A DNA stretch of 59,084 nt from a virus (taxonomy: Duplodnaviria; Heunggongvirae; Uroviricota; Caudoviricetes): the IMG/VR virus record IMGVR_UViG_2703718809_000006; one strand, given 5' to 3'. The notes under the pieces are model-generated. The model saw nothing but the letters and a program-made list of their open reading frames with translations. It did no database searches and had not been told where the DNA came from. Positions within the stretch are counted from its first letter, which is position 1. Every line of letters starts with the position of its first letter. The position numbers and the translations under genes are program-made. Positions 12,958-18,857 of this stretch are shown in pieces.

Positions 12958-13044
12958 ATGAACACGGCATTCAAAATCATTATGGCCGCGATCTATTTCT
13001 GGCTGTTCTCTATCACTTTTGGCGGCATCGTCGCACATGGGTAA
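12958..13044 (+). CDS. Small hydrophobic peptide (28 aa, MNTAFKIIMAAIYFWLFSITFGGIVAHG), not in the ORF track
   Basis: ATG preceded by AGGAG and the CCAATCAATCA leader module; single predicted TM segment. Confidence 0.35.
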   Translation: MNTAFKIIMAAIYFWLFSITFGGIVAHG

Positions 13045-13053
13045 GGGGGATGC

Positions 13054-13635
13054 ATGAAAGGCGAAGTGAAAGAGCGCGGCATGATTTTTAACGATGAGAT
13101 GGTCCGGGCAATTCTTGGCGGGAATAAAACACAGACTCGCAGGATTGTTGAAGAAAAATTCTATGGACGGGCAGTGGCCGCAGAGTTGCTTGCCAAGCAT
13201 TGTCCATATGGTCAACCGGGCGATCGTATTTGGGTTCGCGAAACCTACCGGGTACATGGCAAAGCGACGGACGTCGCAACGCTGGTTTATCGCGCAAGCG
13301 TGCGTAACTCCTGGACAGAACAAACGCACCGGGTTCCGGTCGAGGTTTGTAATAAACCAGTATCAGAAAAGTGGACGCCATCAATTCACATGCCGCGCTG
13401 GGCATCGCGCATTCTTCTGGAAATTACCAACGTGCGCGTTGAGCGGTTGAACGATATCAGCGAATGCGATGCAAGGGCTGAGGGCGCACCAACAGAATCG
13501 ACCCTCATTGGCGATAAGCATTACCCAGGGTTCCGTAGCCTATGGAAATCAATTTATGGCGAAGATAGTTGGAACGCTAATCCTTGGGTGTGGGTAATAG
13601 AGTTTGAGCGTATTCAGGGGGCAACCAGTGAGTGA
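13054..13635 (+). CDS. Hypothetical protein (possibly ASCH-like)
   Basis: N-terminal 'MIFNDEMVRAILGGNKTQTRR' motif common in small phage proteins. Confidence 0.4.
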   Translation: MKGEVKERGMIFNDEMVRAILGGNKTQTRRIVEEKFYGRAVAAELLAKHCPYGQPGDRIWVRETYRVHGKATDVATLVYRASVRNSWTEQTHRVPVEVCNKPVSEKWTPSIHMPRWASRILLEITNVRVERLNDISECDARAEGAPTESTLIGDKHYPGFRSLWKSIYGEDSWNANPWVWVIEFERIQGATSE

Positions 13636-13888
13636 GTCAAAATGCCAAATTAATGGCAACAAGATAGAACCGTGCGCGGCGTTGGCACAATCCCTGGAGC
13701 ATGACGCTGAATACACGACGCGAAAAGGTCTGCTGAAATACAAAATCTATAACCATGAATTAATTCATTCACAAGACCTGATCATGCTGCGGTCTGGTGA
13801 ATTTTCTAAATCGCCTATTCGAGTTTCATTTTGCCCGTTCTGTGGTGAAAGTCTGAAAACGTGGGAAGCGGAGGCAACCAGTGAATAA
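13625..13888 (+). CDS. Small Cys-containing protein
   Basis: GTG start overlapping the upstream stop within the GGGGCAACCAGTGA junction module; 'CPFCGESL' motif. Confidence 0.4.
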   Translation, partial: PVSESKCQINGNKIEPCAALAQSLEHDAEYTTRKGLLKYKIYNHELIHSQDLIMLRSGEFSKSPIRVSFCPFCGESLKTWEAEATSE

Positions 13889-14525
13889 CCGCTTTTACAT
13901 GATGTGCTTGCGTGAAACTGTGGGTAATAACGCCTCATTCCATTGCCATAACGGCAATGGTTACAGTTCTGATATCGATCGCGCTCATGTTTACACGCTG
14001 GAAGAAGCCCAAAAAGCCTGGAATTGTGGACGAGATATCGATCAGCCTGTTTGCGCTGATAGCGTGGATGCAATGGCTGTGTGGCACGTTGATTGCCAGT
14101 ACATCCCCACAGAAAGCCTGATTGAGTCAGATTGCACTGCGTATGTGGCCTACAAAAAAGGTAGCTGGAACGGCAACGATGTTTACTGGCTTCAACACGG
14201 TGGATTGCCAACAGATGACTTCAGTAAAGCGACCATCTTTAGCGTCGCCAACAAAAACGAACCAGGAATAGTTTGGTTGCCATTTTCCATTGCTGATGCA
14301 GCAAAGCGTCGGACGTTCAATATCAATAACTTTAACCGCAGAACAATGGTTCAGGGCGCAGGTTTGGTCATGCCTGACTGGTTGAAAGAGCAGAACAGAA
14401 GAAAGAAGTCGCGAAGCGGGAAGGTGCGTTGGAATTGTCCGCATTGCGGAAAAATAACCTGGCAGTACAGCCCATATGATTTTGAAGGCTGTAGTGATTA
14501 CAACTGTGAAGGATGGCGAGAATGA
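13881..14525 (+). CDS. Cys-rich protein with C-terminal zinc-ribbon-like motif
   Basis: GTG start inside the GGAGGCAACCAGTGA junction; 'CPHCG...C..C' near the C-terminus. Confidence 0.45.
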   Translation: MNNRFYMMCLRETVGNNASFHCHNGNGYSSDIDRAHVYTLEEAQKAWNCGRDIDQPVCADSVDAMAVWHVDCQYIPTESLIESDCTAYVAYKKGSWNGNDVYWLQHGGLPTDDFSKATIFSVANKNEPGIVWLPFSIADAAKRRTFNINNFNRRTMVQGAGLVMPDWLKEQNRRKKSRSGKVRWNCPHCGKITWQYSPYDFEGCSDYNCEGWRE

Positions 14526-15109
14526 CAATTGACTATCAGGCACTGCGTGAGGCGGCAGTTGCAGTAGAAACAGAACCTATGCATCAAAATTTTGTGGCGT
14601 TTCGTATGGCGTTCACGCCATCGGTGGCACTGGCACTACTGGATGAAATTAAGCGGCTGGAAGACACAAATATTGATGCTATGTGCCGTATTGCAGAGCT
14701 TGAGACTAATCTCGCGGCGCTGGTGGCAGAGAACGCCGGACTGAAACACGCAATGGCCGTAACTCATGAGCATGTGTCGGTCACGGATGCAGGGCAGGCC
14801 GGAGTTGCTGCAATGATTATCAACGATGCCCTGCACCACAGCGAAACTCCAGCTACCGATGCTTTTCTAGCTGAAGTGAAGACTGAAGCACGCAAGGAAG
14901 GCGCTTATTTTGTGGCGAACAGAATGCTGGCTGCCTGGGAAGCTGGTTTTATTGATGATACTGCGAAGAACGCCGCGGATATTGCCCGGATGATTCTTAC
15001 CTCTACTGAGTTTATGGCTAATGCGCCGGAAGGCGATTTTGACCGCTCATTCTCTGATGGCGTTCTCGAAGATATCGCCGACCAGCTTCGAAAAGGAGGC
15101 AACCAGTGA
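14513..15109 (+). CDS. Hypothetical protein, tandem paralog 1
   Basis: Shares the N-terminal 'IDYQALREAA' block and an identical ~29-nt DNA stretch with the next gene. Confidence 0.45.
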   Translation: MARMTIDYQALREAAVAVETEPMHQNFVAFRMAFTPSVALALLDEIKRLEDTNIDAMCRIAELETNLAALVAENAGLKHAMAVTHEHVSVTDAGQAGVAAMIINDALHHSETPATDAFLAEVKTEARKEGAYFVANRMLAAWEAGFIDDTAKNAADIARMILTSTEFMANAPEGDFDRSFSDGVLEDIADQLRKGGNQ

Positions 15110-15804
15110 GCAAGATTGACTATCAGGCACTGCGTGAGGCGGCGGAACGTGCAATTCCAGCAATGGAACGCCTGTTAATGTTGCCAGCTGATGATGATTT
15201 GTTAAGTGAACAGGAACTTAAAGATTACGGTGTGGATATTGATGCGCTCAACGCCTTCAAATTTCTGGCCGGACCAGAAACCGTGCTGGCACTACTGGAT
15301 GAACGGGAAAGAAACCAGCAATACATCAAACGCCGCGACCAGGAGAACGAGGATATTGCGCTAACGGTAGGGAAGCTGCGTGTTGAGCTTGAGGAGACAA
15401 AATCAAAACTCAACGAGCAGCGTGAGTATTACGAAGGTGTTATCTCGGATGGAAGTAAGCGTATTGCTGAACTGGAGAAAAGCGAAGAGCAACTCATTAA
15501 CGAGCGTGACCATGCTGAGTCTGCTTTAGCTGATATGTATTTTGCAGCAACCGGGGATAGGCCTGAGTGGAGTAACTGGTTCGGTTTTTCAGATGCAGTA
15601 GATGCCGTAGTTGACAGAATTGCTGATTTAGAAGCTAAACAGCCATCGCCAGTAGTACCTGAAGGACTGATTAAAGCGGTGCGTTTTTATGAGCAGGTAA
15701 AACGTGAGAACCCGCCAGTCGAAACCGGAGCATGGAAAGACGCTGTTGACTGGGTGCTCAGAGAAGCTTGCCAGACTGTAAACATTGGTATCAAAGGAGA
15801 GTGA
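15106..15804 (+). CDS. Hypothetical protein, tandem paralog 2 (coiled-coil)
   Basis: GTG start inside the GGAGGCAACCAGTGA junction; N-terminus homologous to the previous ORF. Confidence 0.45.
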   Translation: MSKIDYQALREAAERAIPAMERLLMLPADDDLLSEQELKDYGVDIDALNAFKFLAGPETVLALLDERERNQQYIKRRDQENEDIALTVGKLRVELEETKSKLNEQREYYEGVISDGSKRIAELEKSEEQLINERDHAESALADMYFAATGDRPEWSNWFGFSDAVDAVVDRIADLEAKQPSPVVPEGLIKAVRFYEQVKRENPPVETGAWKDAVDWVLREACQTVNIGIKGE

Positions 15805-16298
15805 GAGTGCAGATTTCACCGGTTACTCTTCGTGTTGCGAAGGCATTTATATCCAGACATCACCGACACAATAAACCCCCGGTGGGGCATAAATTCAGCA
15901 TTGGTCTGAGAAATGATGCCGGAGAATTGATAGGTGTGGCGACAGCCGGTCGACCTGTTGCACGACATTTGGACGATGGATTAACGCTTGAAGTAAATCG
16001 CACATGTACCACAGGAGAACGCAACGCTAACAGCGCGCTTTATGGTGCTGTCTGGCGGGCAGCAAAAGCTATGGGTTATCAACGTTGTATTACGTACACC
16101 CGGGCAGATGAATCAGGAGCATCTCTTCGCGCAGCTGGTTTTGTTCGTGTGAAAGAGCTTCCTCCAAGAAAAAGCTGGGCGGAATCAAGCGTCGCCCTGC
16201 GGAGTAAACGCGATCCGGTCGGAAACGGTGGTGTTCCTCGTGTGCTCTGGGAAATCAGGAGAATGAGTACCACTGGCATTCGCATCAAAGGAGAGTGA
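15804..16298 (+). CDS. Hypothetical protein
   Basis: GTG start after the ATCAAAGGAGAGTGA junction module; 164 codons; no motif I can place. Confidence 0.4.
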   Translation, partial: RVQISPVTLRVAKAFISRHHRHNKPPVGHKFSIGLRNDAGELIGVATAGRPVARHLDDGLTLEVNRTCTTGERNANSALYGAVWRAAKAMGYQRCITYTRADESGASLRAAGFVRVKELPPRKSWAESSVALRSKRDPVGNGGVPRVLWEIRRMSTTGIRIKGE

Positions 16299-16299
16299 T

Positions 16300-16563
16300 A
16301 TGGCAACTTTAACAAAAAAAGAACGGGCATGGTTGAATGAATTACAGGACGTTCTTGATCGCTGCCCATCACCGAAAAAAATTGGTTTTTACACCATTGG
16401 CGATAAAAGCATTTACCTGTATGACCTGCGCCGCATGGATGAAATCATGGAGGCTCTTGATAATCGTTCGTCGATGGATTGGTGTGTTGCTGTTCATGAT
16501 ATGAATGCAGGGTTTGATGAAAAGATTTTGTTCCCCTCATCAGTTGAAAGCACTGCGGGTTAA
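16300..16563 (+). CDS. Small hypothetical protein
   Basis: ATG after a second copy of the ATCAAAGGAGAGTGA junction module. Confidence 0.4.
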   Translation: MATLTKKERAWLNELQDVLDRCPSPKKIGFYTIGDKSIYLYDLRRMDEIMEALDNRSSMDWCVAVHDMNAGFDEKILFPSSVESTAG

Positions 16564-16573
16564 GGAGTAACAC

Positions 16574-17437
16574 ATGACCACTATTACCAAAGAACGTATT
16601 GAATTGTTCATTAAAAATCCGCTTGAAAACGGGCTTACCCGTGGTGAACAAATGGAACTGGCACGGATTGCGCTGGCATCGCTGGAAGCAGAGCCGGCGG
16701 CAAAGATTATAGCTCATTACCCATTAGGGGTTGACGTAGGCAAACAAAAATTCGTACAGGCCATTAGAGAGCTTCCTGACTTTGGCGGATATCTATTTGC
16801 CGCCCCTCCAGCGCCGATAGTGCCGGAAGAAATGTATTGGCAGGATGCGCCAGTTGAAGGCAGCAGCAAAGCGGCTGCATACGCTACAGGCTGGAACGAT
16901 TGCCGCGAAGCCATGCTTCAGTCCGGAAACTTTCGGGAAAACAAGAATTCGTCAACCAATAATTTTCGGGAAATCGCGGAAACGTCAACCAACTATCCGG
17001 TAATTCCTAGTGAGGTGTTGTCCGCAATCTTGAAGGTTGCCAAGATTCGTGCCGATTTCGATGATTTTGACGGTGACAGGCGAGGTATCGGTGATTGTCT
17101 GGATGAGGCTGAGCAAGAGCTTATCGTTACCATTAACAAATATGCCAGTCAGTTGGCAGCAGAACCTATAGCGCCTAATGACGTTCGAGAGCAGACAGCC
17201 ATTCCGCAAGTTCCGGTAACTCCGGATGGTTGGATAAGCTGTAGTGAGCGAATGCCGGATACCAAAACAGCCGTTCTTGTTGCCAGGGAGTTTGACAGGA
17301 AAGGTGACTGGCGAATGAAATGGGCGACTTACATCCCGGGGCATCCTGACGCTAATGATGGGTGGGTAATACCTGGTGCGTCGTGGATTCCATCACACTG
17401 GATGCCGCTACCAGAACCGCCGCAGGAGGCGAAATGA
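16574..17437 (+). CDS. Phage protein with DUF551-like C-terminal domain
   Basis: C-terminal 'W...VLVA...W...HWMPLPEPP' pattern; imperfect intragenic tandem repeat at about 16921-16990. Confidence 0.5.
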   Translation: MTTITKERIELFIKNPLENGLTRGEQMELARIALASLEAEPAAKIIAHYPLGVDVGKQKFVQAIRELPDFGGYLFAAPPAPIVPEEMYWQDAPVEGSSKAAAYATGWNDCREAMLQSGNFRENKNSSTNNFREIAETSTNYPVIPSEVLSAILKVAKIRADFDDFDGDRRGIGDCLDEAEQELIVTINKYASQLAAEPIAPNDVREQTAIPQVPVTPDGWISCSERMPDTKTAVLVAREFDRKGDWRMKWATYIPGHPDANDGWVIPGASWIPSHWMPLPEPPQEAK

Positions 17438-17694
17438 TGGATGTAAAAGAGAAGGTTTTGCAGGTGATGCGTTCCCGTGCTGCCCTACAAGAGAAAGCTC
17501 TCGGCGGTGAATATCCATTCACGATAGCAACCTGGAATCTGCGGTTGGCAATGGAGAAGGAATTTCCTGATGAAGAATGGCGCTCGGCAGATTTGCGCAA
17601 AATTCTTATGGAGCTGGCTAAAGACGGAACAGTATCCAAAGATACCCATGCCAGCCGGATTGGTCAGGCGGTATGGAGACTTGAGGTGCGGTAA
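17434..17694 (+). CDS. Small hypothetical protein
   Basis: ATG overlapping the upstream stop; 86 codons. Confidence 0.4.
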   Translation: MMDVKEKVLQVMRSRAALQEKALGGEYPFTIATWNLRLAMEKEFPDEEWRSADLRKILMELAKDGTVSKDTHASRIGQAVWRLEVR

Positions 17695-17768
17695 TGAGCT
17701 GGCCTGAAGCATTTGCGATTGTAGGCGTAGCTATGGCGATTGCCGCTATTTTTATCTTCTGGGGGTAA
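17694..17768 (+). CDS. Small hydrophobic peptide (24 aa, MSWPEAFAIVGVAMAIAAIFIFWG), not in the ORF track
   Basis: ATG overlaps the upstream TAA; one TM-like segment. Confidence 0.3.
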   Translation: MSWPEAFAIVGVAMAIAAIFIFWG

Positions 17769-17770
17769 CG

Positions 17771-18004
17771 ATGGGAAAATTAACTTTTGTTGTCGAATTT
17801 GAGGATGGCAAAGAGCCACCTGTTAGCGCCAATCTTGATGTTGCTGGTGGCAGGCTGGTTTCGGTTCTATTTGGTGATTACCGCGACGACTTCTTTCAGC
17901 CTGAAGAAGTTGATGTAGTGCGAGAAGCATTAAACGAGCTAAGTGTTGATAACGATGATGCTCATGCGGAAATCATCAAAAAAATGGAACTGCTAACTCA
18001 CTAA
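17771..18004 (+). CDS. Small acidic hypothetical protein
   Basis: 77-aa ORF in operon context. Confidence 0.4.
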   Translation: MGKLTFVVEFEDGKEPPVSANLDVAGGRLVSVLFGDYRDDFFQPEEVDVVREALNELSVDNDDAHAEIIKKMELLTH

Positions 18005-18052
18005 ATTATCAATTATGGTGCTATCACCTACGACACCGAGAGAAAATTTATA

Positions 18053-18175
18053 ATGTCAAAAGTAAATGTTTTGATTTTTTCAGCAATTGTTGGCTTTGGT
18101 TTTACTGCCGGAGTGCAGATTTATATTGCGTGGGAAAAAATCATCAACTACGCATGGAGTTGTTTTATTAAGTGA
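18053..18175 (+). CDS. Small hydrophobic peptide (40 aa, MSKVNVLIFSAIVGFGFTAGVQIYIAWEKIINYAWSCFIK), not in the ORF track
   Basis: ATG-initiated ORF with one TM-like segment upstream of the 18183 gene. Confidence 0.3.
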   Translation: MSKVNVLIFSAIVGFGFTAGVQIYIAWEKIINYAWSCFIK

Positions 18176-18182
18176 GGTAAGT

Positions 18183-18476
18183 ATGTGGAGAGGTAATAGT
18201 CATGGCAAAAGCCAGATGATACTTACCGAATATCAGTTTGACCATAAAACCAATAAATCACGTTCAGTATATTTGCTTCGGCACAATAGCCGCGTAAGGA
18301 ATACCGTGCTGGAGCAAAATCTGACTGTTGAAATGGATAATTACGGTGGCTTCAAGCCAACAATTTCGCTTGATGATTTTCCTCGTGGTTTAAGCGAAAG
18401 AGAAGCAATGCTGAAATTAGCAGAATGGCTACAAAGATTAAGCATTGCTATTGAAGATAACTGGTCTGAACCTTAA
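18183..18476 (+). CDS. Hypothetical protein
   Basis: Probable ATG start at 18183 (MWRGNSHGK...) within track ORF 18087-18476. Confidence 0.4.
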   Translation: MWRGNSHGKSQMILTEYQFDHKTNKSRSVYLLRHNSRVRNTVLEQNLTVEMDNYGGFKPTISLDDFPRGLSEREAMLKLAEWLQRLSIAIEDNWSEP

Positions 18477-18482
18477 ATTTAT

Positions 18483-18857
18483 ATGATGACACTAAAACAT
18501 TTTCTTGACCGCCCATTATGGGCGGCAGCCGCAGGCTATGACTTTAATTATATGGATTGCATGTCTTATACTGCCAATGCATACGACCATTCGTTCAGCC
18601 TGCTGTTTAATTCTTTAAGAATATTGCCGGAAACAGAAGTTGGAGAGCTTCATTTATGGCTATTGGGCTTTATCGCGGCTGTCGTTGGTATTGCTGTATG
18701 GCCTTTTATTTTCTGGCTGGTGGCTGTTGTAGTGTGGTTTAAGTGCAAGACGTACCGGAGAAAGTATTTCTTAGGTGATGGAATGACTGATATTGCCAAA
18801 ATGAACATTGAAAAATGGACTAAGGAATGTGAAAAGAAATGGCGCAAAAAGAAATGA
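18483..18857 (+). CDS. Membrane protein
   Basis: Hydrophobic segment 'LWLLGFIAAVVGIAVWPFIFWLVAVVVWF' followed by a basic tail. Confidence 0.45.
   Translation: MMTLKHFLDRPLWAAAAGYDFNYMDCMSYTANAYDHSFSLLFNSLRILPETEVGELHLWLLGFIAAVVGIAVWPFIFWLVAVVVWFKCKTYRRKYFLGDGMTDIAKMNIEKWTKECEKKWRKKK

Follow-up and report, generated by a model that had tools for sequence, protein, structure and literature searches.

Ever since the modular theory of phage evolution of Susskind and Botstein, it has been debated whether mosaic genomes arise by homologous exchange at short linkers or by random illegitimate joining followed by selection, and clear examples of linkers are few. Short boundary sequences between the modules of lambdoid phages, proposed as recombination foci, were reportedly described in phage HK620, seven of them in all, by Clark et al. 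in 2001. The idea is considered plausible and has rarely been documented (PMC3029335). Here we analyse a stretch of viral DNA of 59,084 nucleotides (nt) (IMG/VR record IMGVR_UViG_2703718809_000006, hereafter the window), which is a P1/P7-like phage-plasmid and which carries, 3' of pap, a C1-controlled operon of small genes lying within a known hypervariable region. Two 15-nt motifs, which we call J-A and J-B, recur at the junctions between these genes, and our reading of their sequence is that they are translation-initiation sites that probably double as short-homology recombination linkers, in other words as boundary sequences. The locus offers a compact and countable case, in which a handful of junctions of 13–37 nt serve dozens of gene families.

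Like the lambdoid boundary sequences, these junctions are short, remain conserved where the sequences on either side are unrelated, lie at the edges of genes or modules and are proposed sites at which homologous recombination would assort modules; in addition, most of their carriers are lambdoid, on the early-left operon side. They differ in that they separate single small genes instead of functional modules, and in that the linker is the ribosome-binding site (RBS) and start–stop junction itself, is read in two frames and is also present in P1-like phage-plasmids. The literature provided no description of J-A or J-B, of two-frame use or of a link between P1-like and lambdoid elements, the boundary sequences of Clark et al. 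not having been compared; the linker concept is known, and these particular linkers are apparently an undescribed, new instance of it.

In mechanism, these junctions come closest to the PeSL (promoter-early stem-loop) cassettes of T4-type phages (PMC2839356), in which intergenic repeats are made of a promoter and a terminator hairpin and for which mini-circles have been shown (PMC2839356, PMC4122927). Both systems have small non-essential genes of hyperplastic regions flanked by copies of an expression signal, and close relatives differ, as do the present loci, by repeat-bounded indels or replacements that recombination between the copies would explain. However, the PeSL signal is a transcription signal, whereas the one described here serves translation, lies within the overlapping ends of coding sequences and includes neither a sigma-70 promoter nor a terminator hairpin. 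A scan for promoter-like and terminator-like sites found none at the five junctions, and their folding is not significant (see below), for which reasons a PeSL-like transcription cassette was rejected. Integron cassettes share with this locus the arrays of promoterless single genes, the recurring junction element and the variable order. Unlike in integrons, the junction is coding and carries an RBS, crossovers also fall at ordinary identical patches within genes, and we found neither an attC-like imperfect palindrome nor, among the operon open reading frames (ORFs) searched, an integrase.

Eight hypervariable regions are known in P1-like phage-plasmids, the stretch 3' of pap being one of them, and in phage JL22 pmgT is replaced by clusters that contain an Ea22-type gene (PMC9603915). 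The window locus is at the location of hypervariable region 8 (pmgT-humD), directly 3' of pap; the study of that region deals with variable gene content only (PMC9603915), to which the present analysis adds junction motifs and a mechanism.

Conserved motifs at five gene junctions

A motif scan of the whole window located J-A (GGRGGCAACCAGTGA) at 13617–13631, 13870–13884 and 15095–15109, with exactly three copies even when up to two mismatches are permitted; 0.15 copies are expected by chance and three were reached in none of 100 shuffles. J-B (ATCAAAGGAGAGTGA) is found at 15790–15804 and 16284–16298 (0.09 copies expected, two reached in none of 100 shuffles), and the repeat finder showed that its copies are embedded in a 37-nt repeat that is 78% identical. 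All five copies are on the plus strand and span a stop/start junction. A first-pass annotation of this DNA had reported one motif shared by three junctions and another by two further ones, and both groupings hold, its coordinates being 2 nt off for the third J-A copy and its approximate positions 3 nt off for J-B.

J-A is composed of a Shine–Dalgarno (SD) sequence GGAGG, a 6-nt spacer and a GTG start codon. The first copy (J-A1, GGGGGCAACCAGTGA) has an SD-like GGGGG and a GTG at 13628, and the other two (J-A2 and J-A3, both GGAGGCAACCAGTGA) have their GTG at 13881 and 15106. At J-A3 the TGA of the motif is the stop codon of the first of two adjacent Ea22-like genes, whose protein ends with ..GGNQ, and the GTG is the start of the second one, which results in a 4-nt overlap (GTGA). 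The genes that end at J-A1 and J-A2 use a different frame of the motif, which gives them the ending ..ATSE, and have their stop codons 4 nt further on, at TGA 13633–13635 and TAA 13886–13888, respectively, with 8-nt overlaps in both cases. The overlap of a GTG start with the end of the preceding gene, as originally annotated, is therefore present at all three J-A copies, but the motif provides the upstream stop codon only at J-A3. J-B consists of an SD AAGGAG (15794–15799 in J-B1, 16288–16293 in J-B2), 6–7 nt and the start; its TGA is the upstream stop, and the next gene starts after a gap of 2 nt (GTG 15807) or 1 nt (ATG 16300). All these junctions have the anatomy expected of translationally coupled genes, with the SD within the 3' end of the upstream ORF and the start codon overlapping or abutting the stop codon. 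Together with the replacement of GTG by ATG in some homologs, this anatomy would fit translational coupling.

The repeat finder detected no inverted repeat or dyad symmetry at the junctions, a tandem-repeat scan returned nothing relevant, and none of the five junctions folded as RNA better than shuffles (z-scores from −1.5 to +0.8). As no stable structure hides the SD, a strict dependence on upstream translation is not predicted by folding. An Rfam scan of positions 12000–18500 gave only a sub-threshold match to GcvB, on the opposite strand.

The same junctions join many unrelated gene families

Related loci were gathered from viral contigs in a motif-blind way, by selecting contigs that encode either the 214-aa (amino acid) protein whose gene starts in J-A2 or the XF1762-family protein whose gene lies between J-B1 and J-B2 (80 loci each). 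A census of 1162 adjacent junctions was made on both protein-anchored sets, the window, the P7 locus and a locus of an Escherichia albertii plasmid. In addition, exact-motif scans of the viral contig collection yielded more than 120 loci per motif. When species-representative genomes (about 600 Gb) were searched with an exact 15-mer, the matches listed were scattered over unrelated phyla in a chance-like manner and were uninformative on host range. Since a 15-mer gathers chance matches, 18 unrelated loci were dropped and our main claims are based on the protein-anchored loci.

In these loci the upstream neighbours of the 214-aa gene belong to 14 protein families, and 80 of the 81 junctions 5' of this gene are J-A or the one-base variant GGAGGCA[A/G/T]CCAGTGA; likewise, J-B connects the XF1762 gene to 12 downstream families. 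J-B and J-A are the two most promiscuous junction types of the census: with up to three mismatches, J-B joins 22 upstream to 21 downstream families, and J-A joins 13 to 21 in frame a and 6 to 3 in frame b. The motif-anchored viral loci, after filtering, represent 107 distinct contexts for J-A (33 upstream and 34 downstream sequence classes) and 93 for J-B (16 and 28). Both motifs are thus conserved sequences placed at gene boundaries, with unrelated flanks on both sides. The base in the middle of the spacer varies (A, G or T), while the SD, the spacing and the start codon are nearly invariant.

Extended versions of these junctions are widespread, as a 65-nt version of J-A is present in at least 1480 of 5426 complete Escherichia coli genomes and a 41-nt version of J-B in at least 1150 of them, which amounts to at least a fifth to a quarter of these genomes. 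Most of these copies are chromosomal, i.e. in prophages.

The junction TAAGGAGTAACACATG (16563–16576), 3' of an 87-aa gene, is followed in related loci by 15 different downstream families and may be a third type of linker. Related loci contain other promiscuous junctions too, such as GGAGGTGAAGTGATGAAC, which is preceded by 10 upstream families.

Homology breakpoints and recombinant joints

In the loci anchored on the 214-aa protein, homology to the window begins exactly at 13870, where J-A2 starts, in 60 of 80 cases. It ends in 61 of the 80 at 14556–14559, the end of a box near the 5' end of the first Ea22-like gene, and in 11 at 14647, the end of an internal box of the same gene. The 5' box (14528–14556, encoding IDYQALREAA) is identical over 29 nt to 15115–15143 in the second Ea22-like gene, an identity that the first-pass annotation had pointed out and that the repeat finder reproduced. 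The internal box (14630–14647, LALLDE), which had escaped that annotation, is identical over 18 nt to 15286–15303. Both identities, like the copies of J-A and J-B, far exceed what chance would give. In the XF1762-anchored loci, left ends fall at 15783–15799 in 30 of 80 and right ends at 16302–16321 in 25. Homology breakpoints coincide, then, with linkers.

Recombinant joints, expressed in window coordinates from chained alignment segments, share 13–31 nt. The joint from 13633 to 13870 (17 nt shared, two loci including L320) lacks the 86-aa gene that lies between J-A1 and J-A2. The joint from 14556/8 to 15115 (29–31 nt, 16 loci) lacks Ea22-like gene 1, and that from 14647 to 15283/6 (18–21 nt, 15 loci) makes a hybrid Ea22 gene, so that both boxes are crossover points. 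In a single locus (L342), a joint from 15109 to 13870 (15 nt) places an Ea22-like gene before the 214-aa gene, so that the gene order is permuted. Loci with and without the XF1762 cassette have the same genes on either side of it, and 13 nt are shared there at a junction of the J-B type. Finally, 39 pap-linked loci show 34 different downstream gene orders, a count partly inflated by differing locus lengths. The cassette shuffling at conserved junctions that had been suggested from the sequence of the window alone is borne out by these breakpoints, which fall on the motifs in the protein-anchored loci, and by the many unrelated families that the junctions join.

The genes that follow J-B often share their first codons (MATLTKKER, MTTITKER, MSAITKER or MTTITDK; at 16300–16320 and 16574–16597 in the window, in locus L231 and in others), and the J-B linker seems to extend into the N-terminus of unrelated proteins. 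In five loci, window position 16320 is joined to 16574, with 21 nt shared.

Through these junctions, P1-like phage-plasmids are linked to a very different temperate lineage, the lambdoid prophages, among them Shiga toxin (Stx)-converting phages. Window cassettes are 95–98% identical to those of Stx2c-converting phages (13870–15395) and of other phage records (13870–15767), which points to recent gene flow between the P1-like and lambdoid lineages. An earlier survey found mosaics within, not between, the lambda-like and P1-P2-Mu groups (PMC3945230). Cassettes of the Ea22/EaA type that are 98% identical to the window also occur in a record of Escherichia phage 24-2-1 (OK181861.1, locus L354; Vequintavirinae, Avunavirus), which may result from mixed or chimeric assembly and not represent a real locus of a lytic phage.

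Conservation as DNA or as peptide

Of the 107 J-A contexts, 73 have the motif translated as ..GGNQ at the end of the upstream gene and 32 as ..EATSE.., and the GTG-started ORF 3' of J-A is open in 98. As it is read in two upstream frames, J-A is conserved as DNA in register with the downstream start and not as a peptide. We also considered that J-A might merely be the conserved C-terminus of Ea22 proteins, and rejected this idea because non-Ea22 genes are found on both sides of the motif and because two reading frames are used. The replacement of GTG by ATG in several homologs fits a start-codon role.

The frame of J-B is constant (..IKGE), with the motif forming the end of the upstream gene in 92 of 93 contexts. 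However, XF1762 homologs that are about 85% identical stop right after ..LWEIRR and have no J-B tail, hence the tail is not needed by the XF1762 protein; two other homologs (80% and 82% identity) have a diverged tail, ..AAGIKWEAE or ..AAGIKVEVK. The final residues of many of these proteins (..GGNQ, ..ATSE, ..IRIKGE) are simply linker-encoded, and the Ea22 tails ..GGNQ and ..IKGE are interchangeable linkers, not family-specific domains. For annotation, this means that in many 'hypothetical' prophage proteins it is the linker that determines the C-terminal tail and the GTG start.

A model for gene exchange at the junctions, and its alternatives

In the model that we favour, the linker would be built from the initiation region of the downstream gene, that is, the SD, a spacer of 6–7 nt and a start codon that overlaps or abuts the upstream stop. 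A small set of linkers (J-A, J-B, the Ea22 5' and internal boxes and a few more) would be common to a large pool of unrelated accessory genes, residing in the lambdoid early-left (exo-xis) operon and in the P1/P7-like C1-controlled operon 3' of pap. Neighbours that are otherwise unrelated have identical linkers and hence patches of 13–37 nt of identity at which homologous or short-homology crossover can take place, probably promoted by phage annealing proteins of the RecT/Red-beta type or by RecA. Each crossover would move, delete, insert or permute one whole gene and leave reading frames intact; each gene would stay attached to a working RBS, and the operon would remain tightly packed and probably translationally coupled. 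Rad52-like phage recombinases are reported to favour short or diverged homology, with a minimal length for efficient pairing of 23–27 bp for Red-beta compared with 31–34 bp for RecA (PMC3945230). J-B with the upstream tail measures about 25–37 nt, an Ea22 junction and its box together reach about 65 nt at most, and the longer linkers fit within the pairing range of Red-beta. As the linkers are short and defined, the hypothesis is directly testable by recoding.

A bolder version, which we regard as unlikely, is that the linkers form a recombinase-free, integron-like exchange code. A gene placed between direct-repeat linkers would loop out as a circle (253 bp with the 86-aa gene, 494 bp with the XF1762 gene) and would re-enter any matching linker of a co-resident lambdoid prophage or P1-like plasmid with its own RBS included. 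The linkers and the shared protein tails would then persist because the accessory pool becomes exchangeable across unrelated phage families.

Several points weigh against a role of the junctions as recombination linkers. The linkers of 13–17 nt (J-A1 with J-A2, and the J-B variant) are below the minimal pairing lengths, so such events should be rare. The recombination events, with any direction that we infer for them, come from sequence comparison, and the ends of BLAST segments are drawn to identity patches, which blurs the exact position of the crossover within the linker. The related loci, which come mostly from prophages of Escherichia, Shigella and Salmonella, lack phylogenetic independence, and their differing lengths somewhat inflate the gene-order counts. 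J-B is always in one frame, which by itself leaves room for a conserved C-terminal peptide in that case, and the linkers may be kept for translation rather than for exchange.

It could accordingly be argued that the junctions are conserved for function only, as an RBS with stop–start coupling and/or as a tail peptide, and that the genes were assembled by illegitimate random joining and selection, as in Hendrix-type schemes. The near invariance of the SD, spacing and start next to a variable mid-spacer base, and the constant frame of J-B, agree with such a view, as does the lack of conserved sequences at most phage mosaic boundaries (PMC3029335). Nevertheless, the same 15–37 nt, including the spacer outside the SD, occur between dozens of unrelated gene pairs, which is not expected from random joining, and there are joints at which both parental arrangements share exactly the linker; moreover, J-A is used in two upstream frames and XF1762 homologs about 85% identical do without the J-B tail. 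We consequently hold this explanation to be quite improbable. Still less credit can be given to a dedicated, integron-like site-specific system in which the motifs would be recognition sites for a recombinase. It would account for arrays of small promoterless genes with a recurring short sequence and for single cassettes being present or absent in relatives. Nonetheless, the ORFs of 12353–18476 searched against Pfam, NCBIfam or PHROGs include no recombinase, the motifs have neither dyad symmetry nor a stable hairpin, and crossovers also fall at the 29-nt and 18-nt boxes inside genes, as general homologous recombination predicts. We know of no recombinase common to P1-like and lambdoid elements.

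The remaining explanation, a recent local tandem duplication within the window's element, would have produced both the pair of Ea22-like genes and the repeated junctions, and was the duplication half of what the first-pass annotation proposed. The two genes are indeed adjacent members of one Pfam family, with 29-nt and 18-nt stretches that are 100% identical. Yet high identity over the full length, which such a duplication would imply, was not found: the proteins are 31% identical in an alignment of 93 aa that has 32% gaps, and they are unrelated in their C-terminal halves. The 29-nt box is found throughout the family, and the window carries its most frequent allele (41 of the 272 copies in the loci retrieved); box pairs are no closer within a locus than between loci (mean identity of 24.2 and 24.4 of 29, respectively), and either Ea22-like gene occurs elsewhere in the absence of the other. 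In a test for gene conversion between the Ea22 boxes of one genome, identical box pairs make up 11% of those within loci compared with 3% of those between loci, in redundant data on which no claim of gene conversion is based. By these sequence measures the Ea22-like genes are diverged family members lying side by side and not recent duplicates, and the tandem-duplication reading is essentially refuted. The Ead/Ea22-like family (lambda exo-xis region, PF13935) is known for its multidomain architecture and high diversity, and in Stx phages its members show partial duplications and insertions (PMC8614690). Both tandem genes described here belong to it; what the present loci add is that the conserved 5' box, the internal box and the 3' tail coincide with recombination breakpoints.

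The operon and its genomic context

Plus-strand genes are tightly packed from 12800 to 17000, as seen by sequence reading and in the ORF list. The region is 98–99% identical, in patches, to phage P7, Salmonella phage SJ46 and many P1-like plasmids, and it also matches hundreds of lambdoid and Stx-converting phages piecewise. Over the half of the query that P7 matches, its identity to the window is 98.7%. In the collections of phage and plasmid records, none spans 80% or more of the 4.7-kb query, so the gene combination is unique there. A C1 repressor operator (ATTGCTCTAATAAATAT, 12859–12875, plus strand) is directly 3' of pap, in the same position as the annotated Op(hea) of P7, which places the small-gene operon under phage repressor control. 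In P7, the homologs upf86.8, upf87.4, upf87.6 and the Ead-like upf88.3 follow pap and the C1 operator annotated for the 'hea' operon, and the same GTG starts are used in the P7 annotation and in the RefSeq annotation of the E. albertii plasmid. In a lambdoid phage, the same gene pool is located between exo/RecT/gam and xis/int, i.e. in the exo-xis region.

Searches against Pfam, NCBIfam and PHROGs identified pap as a PNKP-type phosphatase, the unassigned genes belonging to phage families of unknown function. All genes listed here are on the plus strand. The first is a 193-aa gene (13054–13635; P7 Upf86.8 homolog, phrog_874), the last codons of which (..QGATSE) come from J-A1. It is followed by the 86-aa gene (13628–13888; P7 Upf87.4 homolog, phrog_4030), a cassette between J-A1 and J-A2 that has no in-frame ATG near its 5' end, and by the 214-aa gene (13881–14525; P7 Upf87.6 homolog, phrog_2457), whose GTG start is an ATG in one homolog. 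Ea22-like gene 1 had been annotated as 14513–15109; the gene is present and scores 44.3 bits with PF13935 (Pfam gathering cut-off 27), but judging from its RefSeq homolog on the E. albertii plasmid, which begins at an ATGA overlap equivalent to window position 14522, its start is most likely the ATG at 14522 and not 14513. In these coordinates (14522–15109) it has an ATGA overlap with the preceding gene and ends with ..QLRKGGNQ inside J-A3. Ea22-like gene 2 (15106–15804) scores 131.4 bits with the same family (E 4.5e-38), and its tail (..NIGIKGE) comes from J-B1. The XF1762-family, Mom-like gene (15807–16298, 163 aa) is the cassette between J-B1 and J-B2, with a tail (..TGIRIKGE) from J-B2; it starts with GTG in the window and with ATG in most homologs. 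Next are the 87-aa gene (16300–16563; phrog_1714), whose downstream neighbour is highly variable, the 15 families mentioned above lying behind one junction type, and a 287-aa gene (16574–17437) with a C-terminal DUF551 domain and an N-terminus (MTTITKER..) common to other genes that follow J-B. The DUF551 gene contains an in-frame 33-nt tandem duplication of 78% identity (16928–16992), which encodes NFRENKNSSTN and NFREIAETSTN.

Between the C1 operator and the first gene of the operon, a small ORF (12910–13044, or 12958–13044) encodes a hydrophobic peptide, ..FKIIMAAIYFWLFSITFGGIVAHG, which is a 'membrane protein' in the annotation of phage SJ46. A minus-strand terminator-like hairpin (12908–12930) overlaps the start of this ORF. 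Another terminator-like hairpin, AATGCTGGTGGAGTGCGCCCACCAGCATT followed by a T-run, is found just 3' of shtB (12300–12328), and each of its arms holds a Chi octamer, on opposite strands (12303–12310, plus; 12318–12325, minus). The P1 genome is known to be rich in Chi sites. The 59 kb contain 47 Chi sites (GCTGGTGG; 30 plus, 17 minus) compared with 1.5 expected, one of them being in Ea22-like gene 1 (14719–14726), and this abundance may favour RecBCD/RecA-dependent exchange in the window's element.

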